A model generated the notes under the pieces. That model searched no databases and had not been told where the DNA came from. It saw nothing but the letters and a program-made list of their open reading frames with translations. A DNA stretch of 64,000 bases from Escherichia phage JLBYU40: sequence record NC_105514.1; one strand, given 5' to 3'. Both the position numbers and the translations under genes were made by a program. Of this stretch, positions 7,339-56,190 are shown one piece after another (positions within the stretch are counted from its first letter, which is position 1; every line of letters begins with the position of its first letter).

Positions 7339-9213
7339 ATGAATCGTAATGAAGAACTAAAATATAAAGAAATGCAGGCGTTAATTAGAAACTGCAAAGA
7401 GATTATCGAAGGGTCAGCAGATGAAGAGCTGCTGTTTAATAATGCTAATAAACCCTCAGAACGTTTCCCTACACAAAGGGATATGCTTGCAGGTGAATTG
7501 AGTAAGTATCTAATTCTAGAAGAAATGCCAATTCAGATTCGAAATGCTCATATGATTGGGGATATTCATTTCCATGATGCTGATTATGCTGCATTAGGCA
7601 TGACTAACTGTTGCCTGGTAGCTCTGGAAGATATGTTGAAGAATGGTATGAAGGTTGGTAATGCTGAAATTAGCACTCCAAACTCTATCACTACTGCGGC
7701 GGCTATTACTGCTCAGATTATCACTCAGGTTAGCTCCCATCAGTATGGTGGTACTTCTGTAGATCGCCTTGATGAAGTATTAGCCCCTTATGTTCGTAAA
7801 TCCTATGACAAAAATCATGCGTTTGCAAAACGCTGGACTAAGGATGAGGCCAAAGCATCCGTAATGGCTACGGAGATGACTGAAAAAGAAGTCTATGATG
7901 CTTGTCAGGGTCTAGAGTATGAGATCAATACGATGTTCAACTCTAATGGTCAGAGTCCATTTATTACCTTTGGTTTTGGTCTAGGAACTTCTTGGGAAGC
8001 TCGTCTAGTACAGAAAGCAATACTGAAAGTACGTATGGATGGTTTAGGTATCAATAAACGTACAGCTATCTTCCCGAAACTGGTATTTGTACTTCGTGAT
8101 GGAGTAAATATGAAACCAGGAGATGTTAATTATGACATCAAGAAGTTAGCTATGAAATGTACTGCTGAACGTATGTATCCAGATTATATCAGCTATGACA
8201 AAGTTGTAGAAGTTACTGGAGACTACAAAGTTTCTATGGGCTGCCGTTCATTCCTAGCTGCTACAGAAGATGGTGAAACTGCAGGTCGTAATAACTTAGG
8301 TGTTGTTTCTGTAAACTTGCCTAGAATTGCTATCGAAGCTGAAGGAAATATTGACCTATTCTTTGATTTGCTTGAGCTACGTGTAGATACAGCATTAAAA
8401 GCGTTGGAGTGGAGAGTTGATCGCTTAAAATACATTCAAGCTAAAGCTGCACCCATCCTCTATATGTCAGGAGCCTTTGGGTTACGCTTAGGGCCTGATG
8501 AATATGTATTTGATCATTTCTATAACCGTGCTTCTGTATCTCTAGGGTATATTGGTTGCCATGAAATGCTACAGTTCATGTTTGGCAAAGATGTAGACAC
8601 AATGTCCGAGACCTGCATTAAGTTTGTTCAGCGTGTATTGCAGTACATGCGAGATAGAGTCGATCAGAAGAAGGAAGAAACTAAGTTAGGTTATAGCCTG
8701 TATGCTACACCATCAGAATCCCTATGTGATCGTTTTTGTCGTCTAGACCGTGAATATTTCCCGGAGCATGAAGATATTCTGTCTAAAGGATACTACACTA
8801 ACTCGCACCACCTTGATGTAGAACGCAAAGTTGCTCCCAATGTGAAATTTGATTATGAATCTAATTTTACTCCGATTGCTTCTGGTGGGTGCATTTCCTA
8901 TGTAGAACTACCAGATATGAAACGATTCCCAGATGCACTGGAATGGGTTATTAATTATGCTGCTAGTAAAGTTCATTACTTCGGTATTAATACTCCAGTG
9001 GATTCTTGTGGTAAATGTGGATTCTTAGGTGAAACAATAGCATCCGAAGATGGATTTAAGTGCCCTATCTGTGGTAATCATGACCCCGAAACTCTTGAAG
9101 TAACTCGTCGAGTTTGTGGGTATCTTGGAAATCCAGGTGCTCGTCCATTTAACCCGGGCAAACAGCACGAGGTTATGGGCAGAGTGAAACATCAGGATAT
9201 TCGAGCTAAATAA
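7339..9213 (+). CDS. nrdD: Anaerobic ribonucleotide reductase (class III)
   Basis: C-terminal glycyl-radical motif RVCGYLG, Cys cluster CGKCGF...CPICG, 624 aa. Confidence 0.9.
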   Translation: MNRNEELKYKEMQALIRNCKEIIEGSADEELLFNNANKPSERFPTQRDMLAGELSKYLILEEMPIQIRNAHMIGDIHFHDADYAALGMTNCCLVALEDMLKNGMKVGNAEISTPNSITTAAAITAQIITQVSSHQYGGTSVDRLDEVLAPYVRKSYDKNHAFAKRWTKDEAKASVMATEMTEKEVYDACQGLEYEINTMFNSNGQSPFITFGFGLGTSWEARLVQKAILKVRMDGLGINKRTAIFPKLVFVLRDGVNMKPGDVNYDIKKLAMKCTAERMYPDYISYDKVVEVTGDYKVSMGCRSFLAATEDGETAGRNNLGVVSVNLPRIAIEAEGNIDLFFDLLELRVDTALKALEWRVDRLKYIQAKAAPILYMSGAFGLRLGPDEYVFDHFYNRASVSLGYIGCHEMLQFMFGKDVDTMSETCIKFVQRVLQYMRDRVDQKKEETKLGYSLYATPSESLCDRFCRLDREYFPEHEDILSKGYYTNSHHLDVERKVAPNVKFDYESNFTPIASGGCISYVELPDMKRFPDALEWVINYAASKVHYFGINTPVDSCGKCGFLGETIASEDGFKCPICGNHDPETLEVTRRVCGYLGNPGARPFNPGKQHEVMGRVKHQDIRAK

Positions 9214-9229
9214 GCTAATCAGCTGGGTT

Positions 9230-9252
9230 GCTAGTCGACCTGGCTTTTATTT
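9230..9252 (+). terminator. Weak intrinsic terminator after nrdD
   Basis: Short hairpin GCTAG-tcgac-CTGGC (with one G-U pair) followed by TTTTATTTT. Confidence 0.35.
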
Positions 9253-9255
9253 TAT

Positions 9256-9284
9256 TTGCTTTCAGCCAAAAATTTATATATAAT
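9256..9284 (+). promoter_or_regulatory. Early promoter TTGCTT-N17-TATAAT with conserved ATAAATTTGAGAGGAG leader
   Basis: -35 at 9256-9261 and -10 at 9279-9284; same cassette as at 16946 and 19190. Confidence 0.7.
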
Positions 9285-9312
9285 AGATTTATAAATTTGA
9301 GAGGAGAAAGCT

Positions 9313-9594
9313 ATGAGCGAGTTGCTTCCTAAAGTAGATGTCTCCCATCTTGGAGAGCCTAGTGAAGAACGTAAGGCTCTAGATTGGTTGGGTGGATTTG
9401 ATTATCGTCGTGTTGTTGCAACATGGAATGATAAGAAAGTTAAGAAGTTTCGGGTACATTATGTAGGTAAAGACAAGTGGCTCTGGATTGATTATGAAGA
9501 ATCAAAGGGGTCTACTAAGGCTGTGAAAATTTATTGTATGTATGGGTATTATTATGCTCACTGTGATAAGAATGAATTTACAGTACAGAACTAA
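9313..9594 (+). CDS. Hypothetical protein (93 aa)
   Basis: First ORF after the promoter; RBS GAGGAG. Confidence 0.4.
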   Translation: MSELLPKVDVSHLGEPSEERKALDWLGGFDYRRVVATWNDKKVKKFRVHYVGKDKWLWIDYEESKGSTKAVKIYCMYGYYYAHCDKNEFTVQN

Positions 9595-9603
9595 GGAACA
9601 AGA

Positions 9604-9807
9604 ATGAAAAACGTAAAACATCTTAAATATCGCTTAATTTACAACGGACGTATGGAAACAGAAGATCTGGCCCAATTAGCTATTAATTCTAATGAGGTTA
9701 CGGTGCGTGCTCTGGCAATTGAAAAGTTGCGTGCCTCTTATGAAAATCGTGTTATGGAACTGGAGGAGAAACTTTATGGACTTCTTGAATCAGAATCTAA
9801 AAAGTAA
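9604..9807 (+). CDS. Hypothetical protein (67 aa)
   Basis: ORF only. Confidence 0.35.
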   Translation: MKNVKHLKYRLIYNGRMETEDLAQLAINSNEVTVRALAIEKLRASYENRVMELEEKLYGLLESESKK

Positions 9808-9970
9808 TCCAGAAAACATGCTTATTGAGCAATGGAACTTTGGTTATAATGCTGGTGTAGCTACTTGTATTGCTAGATTGGATACGCTTATTAAGCAAGA
9901 AAAGGTACGCCCTGAGGAAGCAATTTTACTCCAAAATATTATCGAAGGATTTAAGCAAGGAATCGTATAG
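9776..9970 (+). CDS. Hypothetical protein (about 64 aa)
   Basis: Start placed at ATG 9776 after a GGAGGAG RBS, within ORF-track 9692-9970. Confidence 0.35.
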   Translation: MDFLNQNLKSNPENMLIEQWNFGYNAGVATCIARLDTLIKQEKVRPEEAILLQNIIEGFKQGIV

Positions 9971-10806
9971 TGCGTAGATTAGTTATTATTAGCGGTGCAG
10001 GTTTGAGTGTTGAAAGTGGTGTACGAGCTTTTCGTACTGATACTGCTAGTGGTAAAGCATTGTGGGATGATTATGATCTAGAAGAAGTATGTAATATTCA
10101 TGCCTTTCGTGGTAATTTTTATCATAAAACCCATATGTTTTACAACAAACGTCGTGAAGAGCTAAAAACTGTTGAACCCAATCTTGCACATTTGCGTATT
10201 GGTGAATGGTATAAACAATATCCAGGTCAAGTAGTAAACTTGACTACCAACGTTGATGACCTTATTGAGCGTGCTGGCGTTCCACATAGTGACATTCTGC
10301 ACATTCACGGATATTTAAAAGAGGTTGTTGTAGCTGATAGCTACAATAGTAGCAATAAACGGATTATTGATGTAGGGTATAATTCTATTGATCCAGATGA
10401 TTATAAATGGGTTAAACCTAATGTAATCTTCTTTGGAGAACATGCTCCTGCATACGCAGAAATGTATAATGTTTTTGATGGTATTACCAGTCAAGATATG
10501 ATCATTGTGGTTGGTTGCTCTAATCAAGTAATTAACTTCTACTGGGAATTATTTCCTGTTCTTAATTTGACTGCTGCCAAACTAATGGTAGTTAACTACT
10601 ATGATAGTGCCATAGCAGCAGAGCCAGGCTATCAAGGTATGACTCGTAGTGAGATGTACCAACTGGAAGATCGTGGTATTCCTTACTGGAGTAAAGGTGC
10701 AGTAGATGCTTTTAGTGACCCTGATTTTATTGCTCGTGTGGAAGCCCATTTAGAGGGTAGACCTTATGTGCCGGAGAGAAGGGGAAACAGATATGTCCAT
10801 AGTTAA
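9970..10806 (+). CDS. Sir2-like (sirtuin-fold) NAD-binding protein lacking a zinc ribbon
   Basis: GAGLSVESGVRAFR, TTNVDDLIERAG, catalytic HG in LHIHGY, PNVIFFGE; no CxxC...CxxC pair. GTG start. Confidence 0.6.
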   Translation: MRRLVIISGAGLSVESGVRAFRTDTASGKALWDDYDLEEVCNIHAFRGNFYHKTHMFYNKRREELKTVEPNLAHLRIGEWYKQYPGQVVNLTTNVDDLIERAGVPHSDILHIHGYLKEVVVADSYNSSNKRIIDVGYNSIDPDDYKWVKPNVIFFGEHAPAYAEMYNVFDGITSQDMIIVVGCSNQVINFYWELFPVLNLTAAKLMVVNYYDSAIAAEPGYQGMTRSEMYQLEDRGIPYWSKGAVDAFSDPDFIARVEAHLEGRPYVPERRGNRYVHS

Positions 10807-10975
10807 ATCTGTTTATACACATCCCGATGATATATTTGTATGGGCGGACGGTAGTTGGTGCTATCGCTGTGAGCTGTGGGAAATGGACTATAAATCCGAT
10901 GACTATGGTGTCATATATGTTGATACGGCTGAGTATGATACGTTCTTAGAAAGGAACAAAAATGGAAATAAGTAA
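10793..10975 (+). CDS. Hypothetical small protein
   Basis: Start at ATG 10793 (MSIVKSV), overlapping the Sir2-like gene end. Confidence 0.3.
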   Translation: MSIVKSVYTHPDDIFVWADGSWCYRCELWEMDYKSDDYGVIYVDTAEYDTFLERNKNGNK

Positions 10976-11468
10976 TACTCCAATTATTTTTCTAGATATT
11001 GATGGGGTGCTCAATTCGAGCATCTCCCACCATCATGCGCCTGATCATGAAAAGATTTTCTTTGGAAGTGACTGGGTTTTCAAACCGCTTCTCAAGGCTT
11101 TTCAGGACTTTATTCGTCCTTCTCCGATAATGATTGTTGGAGTATCCTCATGGTTCCCTGTCAGGAATGAGATGGAGAACGTTCAGATTATGACCGGATT
11201 AGGTCTTATCGATCGTTTTCTTGGTACAACGGATTTTACTGGTGGTGGGCTATCTAGGGGTAATTCTGTTCTTCGCTTCGTTGAAAAGCATAAGCTCAAA
11301 CATTGGTGTGTGCTGGATGATGCTGGTGCTATGATGTACCAGTATCCAACGGTTATAGTCAACGGTAGAACTGGAATAAATCTTCAAGATTTAAGAGCTG
11401 TTAGCTATATGCTAGAATTTAGCCCAGATCTTGAAATGTGTAAATCCTTACAACAATTTAAGGTGTAA
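10962..11468 (+). CDS. HAD-superfamily phosphatase-like protein
   Basis: Motif I FLDIDGVLN and motif IV LDDAG; 168 aa. Confidence 0.55.
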   Translation: MEISNTPIIFLDIDGVLNSSISHHHAPDHEKIFFGSDWVFKPLLKAFQDFIRPSPIMIVGVSSWFPVRNEMENVQIMTGLGLIDRFLGTTDFTGGGLSRGNSVLRFVEKHKLKHWCVLDDAGAMMYQYPTVIVNGRTGINLQDLRAVSYMLEFSPDLEMCKSLQQFKV

Positions 11469-11470
11469 AT

Positions 11471-11899
11471 ATGTTCAATAATGTATTCTCTAAAGAAGCT
11501 AACCCAATTTTGGTTAACTTTTGGCGTACTCTCCCGGCTAGCCTGTATAATGAGGCTATTAACTCCTTGAAAATATGGTGTGAAAATAATGAAATCTCCT
11601 TTGCTTTTAAAGATGATATTGATGAGGCCCCCTGTATTGGTTTAGTTGTGCAGGTAGAGGATGGTCTTGAAGAGATTGTGGGCTGGAAAGAGTTAGACGA
11701 AATGGGCTTAGTTTTTGCGTTAAATTATAAGCTGTTTATGCCTGCTAAGCATCGCCTCGTTGTTAACCATAAAACTAGTGAATCTCCTGGTTTTCAGGTT
11801 AATGAACGTTATGGTTGGTCTTACTCACCGGAAGAAGTAAATGAGGGGATTCAGAAACTTCGCCGTTTTGGTTATCAGATTCCGGGTTTAACTGCTTAA
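11471..11899 (+). CDS. Hypothetical protein, paralogue A
   Basis: Shares the PCIG...W.ELDxMGLxxALNxxLFxP core with the next ORF. Confidence 0.45.
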   Translation: MFNNVFSKEANPILVNFWRTLPASLYNEAINSLKIWCENNEISFAFKDDIDEAPCIGLVVQVEDGLEEIVGWKELDEMGLVFALNYKLFMPAKHRLVVNHKTSESPGFQVNERYGWSYSPEEVNEGIQKLRRFGYQIPGLTA

Positions 11900-11908
11900 G
11901 GAGGCAGA

Positions 11909-12301
11909 ATGGAACAAGTATATTGGCGTCAGATTGATCCTAGTTTGGTGAAGCGTGCGGAGAAGCTGCTACAACGTTGGTTGGGGGTAAGACAAGCCTC
12001 CTTCACTTTTCCGGAGCAGCAAATAGACGATCCCTGTATTGGTGTTTTCCTATCAGGCTACGCTAGGGAATGGGAATTGGATTGGAATGAATTGTCTGCT
12101 ATGGGCTTGATTGTTGCCCTAAACTTCTCTTTGTTCCATCCACGTGGTTTGGCCATATGTCGTGTGCCTGATGACGGTTGTTCGCCCCATCTTTTACAGG
12201 TGGAAGATGATATTTGGGAGTACACTCCAGATATTCTCACAGAAGCTAAAGAACAATTAAATCGTGTTGGGATTTATGTTCCGGGCTTAAATGATGAATG
12301 A
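11909..12301 (+). CDS. Hypothetical protein, paralogue B
   Basis: Tandem paralogue of 11471-11899. Confidence 0.45.
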   Translation: MEQVYWRQIDPSLVKRAEKLLQRWLGVRQASFTFPEQQIDDPCIGVFLSGYAREWELDWNELSAMGLIVALNFSLFHPRGLAICRVPDDGCSPHLLQVEDDIWEYTPDILTEAKEQLNRVGIYVPGLNDE

Positions 12302-12369
12302 TTTTTATTAGCTGAAATTTGTAATCCGGGCTATTAGTGCTCGGATTATTACATAATCTTTCCAGTCGA

Positions 12370-12423
12370 TTGACAGTCAAAATAAATTGTCGTTGACAAT
12401 TTGGATGGATTATGTAATAATAT
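12370..12423 (+). promoter_or_regulatory. Promoter with two palindromic TTGACA-containing operator-like sites upstream of the HNH gene
   Basis: Palindromes TTGACaGTCAA (12370-12380) and ATTGTCgttGACAAT (12386-12400), followed by an AT-rich -10 candidate and GGAGGTGAGG RBS. Confidence 0.45.
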
Positions 12424-12440
12424 ATGTATTGGAGGTGAGG

Positions 12441-12893
12441 ATGTCATTCACACAGCAAGAACTTTTAGATAACTTCCGATATGAAGATGGTAAGTTATTT
12501 AGAACTACAGGAAGAAATGCAGGGAAAGAATGTTGTGTTTCTACGGGTAACGGATATTATCGTATATCTCTAGGGAATAGGACTATGCTTCGGCATAGAG
12601 CAATATTTTTAATGCATCATGGATACTTACCTGATTTAGTAGATCATGTGAATACTATAAAAGGTGATGATCGTATTGAAAATCTTAGAGAGCAGACAGT
12701 GTCCGGTAATCTAAGAAATATCAAATATAAGAAAGGAATGCATGTTTACCCTTCTGGTAGTAAGAACTGGCAAGTAGTATTTACTATTAACCGTAAACGT
12801 ATAGTTAAAGGAACATATGACAACTATGAGGTTGCATGTTCTATGGCCAAGATGTTTAGAGGTCAATTATACGGTAGGGAATCAATCCAGTAA
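12441..12893 (+). CDS. HNH homing/nicking endonuclease with AP2-like DNA-binding domain
   Basis: HNH core HRAIFLMHHGYLP...VDHVNTIKGDDRIENLREQTVSGNLRN; start at ATG 12441 after the RBS. Confidence 0.75.
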   Translation: MSFTQQELLDNFRYEDGKLFRTTGRNAGKECCVSTGNGYYRISLGNRTMLRHRAIFLMHHGYLPDLVDHVNTIKGDDRIENLREQTVSGNLRNIKYKKGMHVYPSGSKNWQVVFTINRKRIVKGTYDNYEVACSMAKMFRGQLYGRESIQ

Positions 12894-54813: not shown

Positions 54814-56190
54814 TTAAGCGGTAGCGTAAGCACCGGATACAACACCATTACTAAAGTAACGTTGCAGGTTAACACGCTGAGTAACGTAGTACGCATCACG
54901 CTGTTTACCAGCTTGGCGCTCGCGTTCAACGGTGACAGCACGCTGACGTGGCATTACGAAGTTATCTTTATAAACGATAACTGCGAACTCTTTCTCAGCC
55001 GCTTTAGCTGGGAAGTACTCAGAAACTACAACCGGCAGACCATAAATACGACCAACCTGACCTTGCAGTTTAACAGCATCGTTACCAACCTGTGCAACAT
55101 CCTGCCATTCTTCATCTTCCAGCAGATCGTAGTAAGCATCCATAGATACGATCAGTACCAGTTTGCTCAGTTTCAGACCATGACGGCCCAGTTTACGACG
55201 CAGTTTAGAGATAGTTTTAGCAGTTACCAGAACAGTACCATCAGCTTTAGCTTCAGTAGTAACTTTAGCACCATCATCTTCAGCCAGTTTCAACAGACCT
55301 TTCGGCTTACCAGTACCATCACCAGTCATAAAAGCTTCTTCGATAGAAACAGCGTGTGCTTCAATCAGACGCTTACGCAGCAGCGGCAGCAGGGAGAAGA
55401 TTGCATCTTCTTCAGTTTCATCAGTAATGAAGGACTTAGCAGCCAGTTTGTAGGTTTTAAAACTAATTTCAGTTAAGGTACCTTTAACTTCGTTACCAAC
55501 AGTAGCATCAGTACCGTAGGAACCAGCATCTACCCAAGTAGCTTTTCCAGCTTCAGGTTCAACCAGCATAGTAAGAATTTTGCTGGACATTGGCAGTTCA
55601 TCGAACAGTGCACCAACTACTAACTCTTTCTGTAGGTCACGAAGGATACGGGTAGAGAAAATAGTTTCGTAGTTTTCACTGGAAACCTGTACAGAGGAAG
55701 AAGTATTAACAGCTTTAACGTGGGCCTTACCATGTTCAGTTTCAAATACATCCTTCTCCATCATATAAGACAGGAGAACTAGTTTCTCAACTTCATCTTC
55801 AAAAGCTTCCTGAGTACCATACAGTGCTTTAGCTACGCTATCACCTACGAAGGAACGACCTTCACGAGCTGCTAGCAGAGATTTAATTTCATCCTGAAGA
55901 CCAACAATGGTTTCCTGCTGCTTTTCTACAGTCTGTGCGAACAGTTCTGCACTCTTTTTAGATTTTTCATCCAGGGACTTAACCAGTTCCAGAGCTTGTT
56001 CCAGTTTCTGACGATCTTCGCCAACTGCTTTAGAAACCAGGTCATTCATACGAGCCAGTTCTTTTTCTTCCTGCTCTTTACGCATACGTTCAGCTTCCTG
56101 AGCTTTCTGAGCAGCAGTCAGACCTTCCAGAGATTTAGCCAGATCACCCAGACCAAGTTCTTCTTTCAGCTTATTAATATCAATAGTCAT
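54814..56190 (-). CDS. Major capsid protein precursor with N-terminal scaffold-like coiled-coil domain
   Basis: 458 aa; N-terminal 150 aa charged coiled coil; downstream of the protease gene. Confidence 0.8.
   Translation of the reverse strand: MTIDINKLKEELGLGDLAKSLEGLTAAQKAQEAERMRKEQEEKELARMNDLVSKAVGEDRQKLEQALELVKSLDEKSKKSAELFAQTVEKQQETIVGLQDEIKSLLAAREGRSFVGDSVAKALYGTQEAFEDEVEKLVLLSYMMEKDVFETEHGKAHVKAVNTSSSVQVSSENYETIFSTRILRDLQKELVVGALFDELPMSSKILTMLVEPEAGKATWVDAGSYGTDATVGNEVKGTLTEISFKTYKLAAKSFITDETEEDAIFSLLPLLRKRLIEAHAVSIEEAFMTGDGTGKPKGLLKLAEDDGAKVTTEAKADGTVLVTAKTISKLRRKLGRHGLKLSKLVLIVSMDAYYDLLEDEEWQDVAQVGNDAVKLQGQVGRIYGLPVVVSEYFPAKAAEKEFAVIVYKDNFVMPRQRAVTVERERQAGKQRDAYYVTQRVNLQRYFSNGVVSGAYATA

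Follow-up and report, generated by a model that had tools for sequence, protein, structure and literature searches.

An early operon shared by T5-like phages

We analyzed a 64,000-nucleotide stretch of DNA from Escherichia phage JLBYU40 (NC_105514.1; hereafter, the window) with a focus on the operon at positions 9256-12301, which encodes a Sir2-like protein, a HAD phosphatase, two paralogous DUF7415 proteins and four small proteins. The 3.2 kb around this operon have 96.6% DNA identity to Escherichia phage VEc33, and nearly all of the 444 matching phage records belong to T5-like phages of Salmonella or Escherichia (Demerecviridae, Tequintavirus). Judged by this similarity, the window belongs to a Tequintavirus, and 9256-12301 corresponds to the T5 early operon with the genes T5.100-T5.107. 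In the T5 reference (NC_005859), a terminator, a promoter (55708-55782), the eight genes T5.100-T5.107 and a closing terminator are all annotated, and T5.102 is annotated as Sir2. Thus, the operon is not new: it is a known T5 operon, which the initial annotation of the window had overlooked, and its sirtuin and HAD neighborhood has been analyzed before. Specifically, Iyer, Burroughs, Anantharaman and Aravind (2022; PMC9503650, section 3.7.3) described a distinct clade of phage sirtuins with three types of gene neighborhood, of which type 3 comprises a sirtuin and a "Swiss-army-knife" HAD and has the T5-like phage SP15 as its type example. They proposed, as a prediction only, that the phage sirtuin acts on RNA 2'-phosphates in a manner similar to KptA/Tpt1. 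Earlier, Vibrio phage Sir2/CobB proteins lacking the zinc ligand were described, and T5 was named among the phages with the gene (PMC5107563, 2016). Our literature search on T5 Sir2, phage sirtuins, DUF7415 and HAD_SAK_2 did not find experimental work. The open reading frames (ORFs) of the operon, with protein lengths in amino acids (aa), and the signals that delimit it are the following.

9221-9245, + strand: intrinsic terminator of nrdD and 5' boundary of the operon; 10-bp stem followed by the T-run TTTATTTTAT; -12.5 kcal/mol, z -3.1
9256-9284, + strand: T5-type early sigma-70 promoter, read from the sequence; TTGCTT (9256-9261), 17-nt spacer, TATAAT (9279-9284)
9313-9594, + strand: ORF1, 93 aa; GAGGAGAAAGCT ahead of the ATG; phrog_7953, 9.6e-66 (PHROG of unknown function); no Pfam match
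9604-9807, + strand: ORF2, 67 aa; phrog_5236, 1.3e-46; no Pfam match
9776-9970, + strand: ORF3, 64 aa; 32-nt overlap with ORF2; phrog_5827, 4.4e-31; same call in VEc33
9970-10806, + strand: Sir2-like protein, 278 aa; GTG start overlaps the stop codon of ORF3; Pfam SIR2; phrog_2162, 2.7e-121
10793-10975, + strand: ORF5, 60 aa; phrog_5116, 2.3e-30; same call in VEc33
10962-11468, + strand: HAD_SAK_2 phosphatase, 168 aa; Pfam PF18143, 1.5e-19
11471-11899, + strand: DUF7415 paralogue A, 142 aa (T5.106); Pfam DUF7415, 3.9e-34; phrog_2502
11909-12301, + strand: DUF7415 paralogue B, 130 aa (T5.107); Pfam DUF7415
12321-12349, + strand: terminator-like hairpin closing the operon; 11-bp stem; about -16 kcal/mol, z -3.2

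The eight ORFs follow each other with a spacing of -32 to +9 nt and are the same as the VEc33 gene calls. Our reading of the sequence, the T5 annotation and the VEc33 calls agree with the proposal in the initial annotation that a single early-type promoter precedes eight coupled ORFs. That annotation had also called the promoter a consensus promoter. This description is correct for the -10 element TATAAT but not for the -35 element TTGCTT, which agrees with TTGACA at 3/6 positions, and because of this poor fit a generic promoter scan did not list the site. The region 9256-9284 is near-identical to the annotated promoter 5' of T5.100, and the block TTTATTTGCTTTCAG...TATAATAGATT.ATAAATTTGAGAG is common to this promoter and the annotated T5 promoter P-N25. 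In the alignment, the site has all the elements of a T5 early promoter, i.e. the A/T-rich upstream block, TTGCTT, the 17-nt spacer, TATAAT and the downstream ATAAATTTGAGAG block. At the operon boundaries, T5 has an annotated terminator at the place homologous to 9221-9245, while the hairpin at 12321-12349, which the generic scan did not list because its tail is U-poor, is at the position of the annotated rho-independent terminator of T5, 25 nt after T5.107. No role is assigned to the four small ORFs and the DUF7415 pair, which we regard as co-transcribed genes. Among these, ORF5 shares 14 nt with the Sir2 gene and another 14 nt with the HAD gene, and its product has a single CxxC (WCYRC).

A CobB-like sirtuin without zinc cysteines

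The GTG start of the Sir2-like protein (from here on, Sir2) is confirmed by its homologues, all of which begin MRRL. SIR2 (PF02146) is the sole Pfam family matching the protein (88.2 bits versus a cut-off of 24, E 8.3e-25, profile positions 1-178/180). As pointed out in the initial annotation, Sir2 retains the motifs of the NAD pocket and the catalytic center (GAGLSVESG, TTNVDDL, HIHG), and the key residues are invariant in 30 clade members (G9, A10, G11, S13, F21, R22, Y58, R61, N94, D96, H113, G114, F154, F155 and E157). Because the NAD-binding and catalytic residues are all kept, Sir2 would be expected to perform NAD+-dependent ADP-ribosyl transfer with release of nicotinamide.

The same annotation noted that the protein has no zinc ribbon, and this holds for the entire clade. 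Sir2 contains only two cysteines (C41 and C183) and no CxxC; C41 is the only cysteine that is invariant in the 30 clade members, and the zinc-ribbon cysteines are present in 0/30. Since no clade member has the zinc-binding cysteines, their loss is old and clade-wide. Compared to CobB, one zinc cysteine pair is substituted (Val), and the other pair lies inside a 7-residue deletion. Sir2 accordingly lacks a Cys4 zinc-binding small domain; nevertheless, three beta-strands (residues 114-122, 131-134 and 147-152) are still modelled in the corresponding region.

The nearest matches of Sir2 are deacylase sirtuins. All NCBIfam matches of Sir2 are CobB-type deacylase models with E-values down to 1e-28, although none of the equivalog cut-offs is reached (the best scores are 99.9 bits versus 243 for NF001753 and 90 versus 320 for NF040867). 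Searched by sequence, the PDB gives E. coli CobB as the best match, with Sir2-Af and SIRT5 next. In the clade alignment, the substrate strand has the motif Q-V-I-N-F. In classical sirtuins, the corresponding strand is V-x-P-A and contacts the peptide backbone, in contrast to V-I-N-F here; similarly, TQNID of classical sirtuins is TTNVD in Sir2 (Gln to Thr). The invariant Y58 and R61, which form a class III Y-x-x-R motif, align with Y92 and R95 of CobB, which recognize anionic acyl groups and are reported to be important for desuccinylation (PMC6636992). An anionic substrate would therefore fit Sir2. Overall, alignments and profiles identify Sir2 as a member of a phage-specific clade of otherwise classical CobB-like sirtuins without zinc cysteines. 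Its relatives are found in 999/50,697 phage records and span T5-like, Vequintavirinae-like, phage 7-11, schizo-T4 Vibrio and jumbo phages.

An AlphaFold2 model of Sir2 built from the 30 clade members (predicted local distance difference test score, pLDDT, 87) supports this assignment. In a Foldseek search of the PDB with this model, the top 50 matches were all deacylase sirtuins with E. coli CobB as the best (TM 0.84), and the best structural neighbors were CobB and Sir2-Af1. In structure comparisons, the model scored 15.9-20.8 against classical sirtuins, 14.3-14.4 against the ADP-ribosylating SirTM, 13.8 and 12.8 against SIRT6 and SIRT7, respectively, and 9.5-13.8 against Sir2 proteins of defense systems (PsSIR2, HerA-Sir2, ThsA, KomC and Avs5). 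In other words, the closest structural neighbors are not defense Sir2 domains. Moreover, no defense Sir2 model in PADLOC-DB matched Sir2 at E<=1, and PADLOC had no relevant match for the HAD and the two DUF7415 proteins either. Sir2 is a stand-alone protein of 278 aa with no sensor or partner (SLOG, HerA, STAND, pAgo or a large C-terminal domain) fused or adjacent to it. The initial annotation had interpreted the missing zinc ribbon as the architecture of defense NADases rather than of deacetylases. This interpretation is contradicted by the PADLOC, NCBIfam and Foldseek comparisons, and neither the stand-alone nature of the protein nor its invariant Y-x-x-R motif supports it: both by profile and by structure, the product of 9970-10806 is nearest to CobB-type deacylase sirtuins.

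The HAD phosphatase and its natural loss together with Sir2

The gene at 10962-11468 encodes, as initially proposed, a DxDGV-type HAD phosphatase. The protein has the motif FLDIDGVLN and matches HAD_SAK_2 (PF18143) with 71.2 bits versus a cut-off of 27.5. The HAD motifs comprise D12/D14 (motif I), S62 (motif II), R99 (motif III) and D119/D120 (motif IV); an alignment of 32 homologues shows no variation at D12, D14, S62 and R99 and a conservation of at least 90% at D119/D120. The family consists of 136 representative clusters, which are mostly stand-alone proteins of 150-190 aa with few fusions (Metallophos-HAD, HAD-Pol-beta nucleotidyltransferase and HAD-NIF), and HAD_SAK_2 was defined from "Swiss army knife" proteins of RNA repair. 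A search of the PDB with the HAD sequence returned His-tag artefacts only. In RefSeq, the HAD, including T5.105, is labelled "Sir2 (NAD-dependent deacetylase)", and the same label is found at L001 4772-5278 and L003 5089-5595. The source of the mislabel is PHROG 18062, a 92-aa profile that lies on the HAD C-terminus (E 4.8e-58) and matches Sir2 only weakly. Based on these profile matches, the label is an annotation error that propagates in RefSeq and PHROG.

Sir2 and the HAD have been lost together in nature. In phage SelmaRatti (Bas34; L015 3001-3450), Sir2 codons 1-103 are in frame with HAD codons ~123-168, with a microhomology (ERAG|A / DDAG|A) at the fusion junction. The deletion removes H113 of Sir2 and D12/D14 of the HAD, i.e. 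both catalytic centers, while both DUF7415 genes are kept. DT57C (KM979354), for which we have the same hit pattern only, with the HAD C-terminus under a gene annotated as sir2, apparently carries the same deletion fusion. It follows from these deletions that E. coli K-12 can probably be infected without Sir2 and the HAD, and that the two can be lost as a unit. Such a loss would be expected for an accessory, host-dependent function, and it does not identify the role. SelmaRatti and apparently DT57C are natural Sir2::HAD deletion phages and can be used as ready-made double knockouts. In Proteus phage Pm5461, the HAD gene is coupled to a gene for a 262-aa protein, which was considered as a hidden Sir2 and rejected (hhalign probability 0.6%).

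Three phages, i.e. the Serratia phages Kashira (L013 6001-9221) and ChuuTotoro as well as ABPH49, have a HAD gene (38% protein identity) that overlaps the first gene of a Prs/Adps-like and NamPT/Namat-like pair. In its architecture, this pair resembles the NAD-reconstitution genes of NARP1, and a Macro-domain phage phosphatase has been described that feeds ADP-ribose (ADPR)-1''-phosphate into NARP1 (Osterman et al. 2026 preprint, 10.64898/2026.01.28.702374). Considering this linkage and the precedent of the Macro phosphatase, a possible substrate of the HAD is phosphorylated ADP-ribose and not RNA ends. The HAD of the Kashira type may be an accessory phosphatase that corresponds to Adpp, the Macro-domain protein of NARP1-AP. 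The operon itself does not belong to NARP1 or NARP1-AP, with no Prs or NamPT homologue in the window or the rest of VEc33. Bas63, the NARP1 prototype, is a Felixounavirus and not a Vequintavirinae phage.

Gene context of the sirtuin clade in other phages

In some other phages, relatives of Sir2 are encoded next to RNA- and phosphate-processing enzymes. In Raoultella phage Ro1 (Sir2 62% identical), the order is Metallophos, followed at some distance by RNA_lig_T4_1, cREC, an AAA_33 kinase, SIR2 and a DNA ligase. A second lineage (L006/L007; Sir2 58% identical) has the order ligase, cREC and Sir2, with the kinase and Metallophos genes on the opposite strand. The cREC-linked clusters, in which RNA ligase, cREC, in some cases the kinase, and Sir2 follow each other, are at L004 4273-6777 and L006 4710-6762. 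In the jumbo phage G17 (Sir2 39% identical; L019 3965-5595), Sir2 is followed by a Nudt16-like Nudix gene and cREC. cREC is a predicted cyclic-phosphate-processing domain and, being present both in the ligase operons and in G17, adjoins the sirtuin clade in two unrelated phage lineages. In T5-like phages, the HAD takes the place of the phosphate-processing partner.

These data also place the operon within the scheme of Iyer et al. The sirtuin gene and the HAD_SAK_2 gene lie in one operon, without a Macro gene, as in type 3 neighborhoods; with 58-62% identity to the Ro1 and L006 sirtuins and 39% to the G17 sirtuin, Sir2 is an orthologue of the clade. In a Pfam search, no Macro-domain gene was found in the operon.

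Homologues of RNA ligase, cREC, the kinase, Metallophos, Prs and NamPT were searched for in the window and in VEc33 1-50000. This search gave two weak matches only, one of the Ro1 kinase to the dNMP kinase and one of Ro1 Metallophos to a VEc33 phosphoesterase. VEc33 gp036-gp037 (L016 17262-18646) encode a Metallophos-type "phosphoesterase" beside a NinI-like Ser/Thr phosphatase. Over its full length, this phosphoesterase weakly matches the Metallophos protein encoded in the RNA-repair cluster of Ro1 (E 0.01, 25% identity), and it could, on such distant similarity, be a member of the same pathway that is encoded elsewhere in the genome. A 187-aa gene 5' of Prs in Ro1 was rejected as a HAD (BLASTP E 0.94) and encodes a winged-helix protein. 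VEc33, as a close relative, has ~18 annotated tRNA features, of which several are flagged as pseudogenes.

A possible role in RNA-end healing

Based on these data, we tentatively favor a model in which the sirtuin and the HAD together bring about NAD-dependent phosphate removal and heal the ends of broken RNA. In this model, the target would be broken RNA such as tRNA cleaved by host nucleases. The sirtuin would move ADP-ribose onto an RNA 2'-phosphate, in a manner similar to Tpt1/KptA, while the HAD would strip either a remaining terminal RNA phosphate or the phosphate of the ADP-ribose-phosphate by-product. Sealing of the healed ends would be done by a host ligase. The substrate and the mechanism as a whole are inferred, whereas the identity of the locus, the structure of the operon, the protein families, the absence of the zinc ligands and the gene contexts are observed. 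Judged by its neighbors in other phages, Sir2 would process RNA ends or phosphates rather than deplete NAD. The gene context was found here independently, and PMC9503650 arrived at the same prediction.

A more specific version of this model is that Sir2 would be the first sirtuin working on nucleic acid. As a Tpt1-like enzyme, it would remove 2'- or terminal phosphates from RNA, with the HAD, or cREC/Nudix in other phages, clearing the phosphorylated ADP-ribose, and in this way, together with a host ligase, it would counter host defenses that cleave RNA or tRNA. We regard this version as possible but on the unlikely side. For the operon as such, a counter-defense role is possible.

Several observations weigh against RNA-end healing. 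To our knowledge, no sirtuin has been shown to act on an RNA phosphate, and every close relative of Sir2, by sequence and by structure, is a protein deacylase. A desuccinylase would need the Y-x-x-R motif just as much. In ECO340P2, 7-11 and ValKK3, the neighbors of Sir2 are uninformative, and the HAD 5' of the Prs/NamPT-like pair in three Serratia-type phages hints at a small-molecule ADP-ribose-phosphate as substrate. The natural Sir2::HAD deletion fits an accessory role without telling which one. Finally, homologues of T4-type RNA ligase, cREC and polynucleotide kinase were not found in the 64-kb window and VEc33 1-50000. As no RNA ligase was found in these searches, sealing would need a host enzyme, and the pathway would be incomplete without host enzymes.

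The main competing explanation is that Sir2 is a zinc-independent protein lysine deacylase, i.e. a CobB-like deacetylase or desuccinylase, that resets the acylation of host or phage proteins early in infection, and that the HAD and the other genes are unrelated neighbors. The best matches of Sir2 (the NCBIfam CobB-type models at 1e-28 to 1e-25 and CobB, Sir2-Af and SIRT5 in the PDB) are what this explanation would lead one to expect. So is the invariance of the catalytic His and Asn, of the FGE-type loop and of the Y-x-x-R motif of class III desuccinylases, and the same case has been made for the zinc-less Vibrio phage homologue (PMC5107563). However, Sir2 scores far under every NCBIfam equivalog cut-off, e.g. 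99.9 versus 243, and departs from the classical motifs in its substrate strand (Q-V-I-N-F) and in TTNVD. Moreover, a deacylase would leave unexplained why genes for cREC, RNA ligase, kinase, Nudix and HAD proteins recur beside the clade in phage lineages that are unrelated, and Sir2 and the HAD were lost together in one natural deletion. We therefore consider this explanation unlikely.

Less probable still is an NAD or ADP-ribose module for host takeover or counter-defense, in which Sir2 would hydrolyze NAD+ or a signal derived from ADP-ribose, and the HAD would dephosphorylate, e.g., ADPR-1''-phosphate from RES-type defenses, as the Macro-domain Adpp of NARP1-AP does. The early expression of the operon, the Nudix gene directly after Sir2 in jumbo phage G17 and the HAD that overlaps the Prs/Adps-like and NamPT/Namat-like pair in Kashira, ChuuTotoro and ABPH49 would all agree with such a module, and phage phosphatases that feed ADPR-1P into NARP1 are documented, though these are Macro domains (10.64898/2026.01.28.702374). 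By contrast, Sir2 has no similarity to defense Sir2 NADase models, and its structural likeness to these proteins is lower than to deacylases; there is no Adps/Namat or NamPT homologue in the window or the rest of VEc33; and the HAD-Prs linkage is limited to three closely related genomes. In addition, T5 encodes an NAD-dependent DNA ligase ~7 kb downstream of the operon. As T5 replication uses this enzyme, burning NAD would harm the phage and be an odd strategy.

That Sir2 is a SirTM-like protein mono-ADP-ribosyltransferase redirecting a host protein in early infection is very improbable: ADP-ribosyl transfer is compatible with the chemistry of sirtuins, the gene is early and the altered peptide-binding strand could reflect a different acceptor, but SirTM is clearly more distant from Sir2 (12-13% identity) than deacylases are (17-27%), the operon has no Macro-domain partner, and the context is one of nucleic-acid and phosphate enzymes and not of a protein-target system.

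If Sir2 indeed removes phosphate from RNA, this would represent a new class of sirtuin substrates and a new way for phages to respond to immunity that cleaves RNA. Should Sir2 be no more than a deacylase without zinc, the zinc ligands would be dispensable for the sirtuin fold.

Other genes and annotations at the locus

The two tandem paralogues recognized in the initial annotation have 32% identity (BLASTP E 6e-20) and both score above the cut-off of DUF7415 (PF24187). The DUF7415 core comprises ~50 aa (DWN..S.LGL...N...HP.GLA..RD..TG.SP.LL.A.DG.WEY). Stand-alone DUF7415 proteins of 71-88 aa are encoded in T4-like contigs, in which their genes have no consistent linkage to HAD or Sir2. In one such contig (L010 5001-5252), the DUF7415 gene lies between nrdD and a radical-SAM (NrdG-like) gene. 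The DUF7415 pair in the window is likewise in an operon just 3' of nrdD, possibly by coincidence. Some public records name DUF7415 proteins "exonuclease" or "tail tube protein"; the profiles and the structure model do not support these names.

The operon is flanked upstream by nrdD and on its 3' side by an HNH endonuclease gene and a replication-origin-binding gene.

7339-9213: nrdD (anaerobic ribonucleotide reductase), upstream neighbor of the operon
12387-12893 (ORF from ATG 12432): HNH_3 homing-endonuclease gene; Pfam 2.4e-11

The HNH_3 gene is apparently an insertion of ~0.5 kb relative to VEc33 because the DNA similarity ends at position 12316 of the window. The gene has its own near-consensus promoter-like site at 12393-12421 (TTGACA-17-AATAAT with an extended TG).

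Three records are named after unrelated hosts, i.e. OR847503 "Listeria phage LM 4-11-1", MG065692 "Campylobacter phage C13" and MH533020 "Acinetobacter phage ABPH49". All three have T5-like or Serratia-phage-like sequences with 93-98% protein identity. Probably, these host labels are wrong or the sequences are contaminants.

Comparison with known systems

The closest known system is T5.100-T5.107 of T5 (NC_005859, 55708-58976) and its orthologues in Tequintavirus. The operon is at the same site, between nrdD and the replication-origin-binding gene, and has the same promoter sequence, the same flanking terminators and eight genes in both phages; Sir2 and the HAD have 95% and 98% protein identity, respectively, to those of T5 and are followed by the same DUF7415 pair (142 and 130 aa). 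The differences concern the small ORFs, the length of Sir2 and the 3' flank. Upstream of Sir2, the window has ORFs of 93, 67 and 64 aa while T5 has ORFs of 126 and 77 aa; between Sir2 and the HAD, the window has one ORF (60 aa) and T5 two (61 and 60 aa); Sir2 is 278 aa in the window and 272 aa in T5; and an HNH endonuclease gene is inserted just 3' of the operon in the window.

With the defense Sir2 NADases (ThsA, DSR1/2, Sir2-HerA/Nezha, Avs5 SIR2 and SPARSA), the phage protein has the superfamily fold and the use of NAD+ in common. It differs from them in having neither a PADLOC match nor a sensor or partner, and in being encoded in an early operon of a lytic phage. Similarly, the HAD and the Adpp of NARP1-AP (10.64898/2026.01.28.702374) are both phage phosphatases, and a homologue of the HAD joins an NAD-related operon in three phages. 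However, Adpp is a Macro domain while the enzyme studied here is a HAD, and the T5-like phage has neither Adps nor Namat.

In the case of Tpt1/KptA, the proposed chemistry is the same, i.e. NAD+-dependent ADP-ribosyl transfer to a phosphate oxygen with release of nicotinamide, and so is the RNA-repair context. The folds are unrelated, with Tpt1/KptA belonging to the ART superfamily and the phage protein being a sirtuin. With the class III/U deacylases CobB, SIRT5 and Sir2-Af1, Sir2 shares the Rossmann domain, the GAGxS and Y-x-x-R motifs, the cofactor-loop Phe/Arg, the catalytic Asn, Asp and His and the FGE-type loop. It is set apart from these enzymes by the absence of the zinc cysteines, by an identity of 20-27% and by scores below every CobB equivalog cut-off.

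Finally, the type 3 neighborhood of SP15 (PMC9503650) contains exactly the same gene pair in a T5-like phage, and SP15 also has DUF7415 genes. Nothing in sequence sets the operon apart from this neighborhood, and the orthologous sirtuins of type 1 and type 2 neighborhoods were re-found here. What we add to that analysis is a comparison of structures, the finding that the Y-x-x-R motif is invariant, the natural deletion that fuses Sir2 to the HAD, and the link of the HAD to a Prs/NamPT-like pair.

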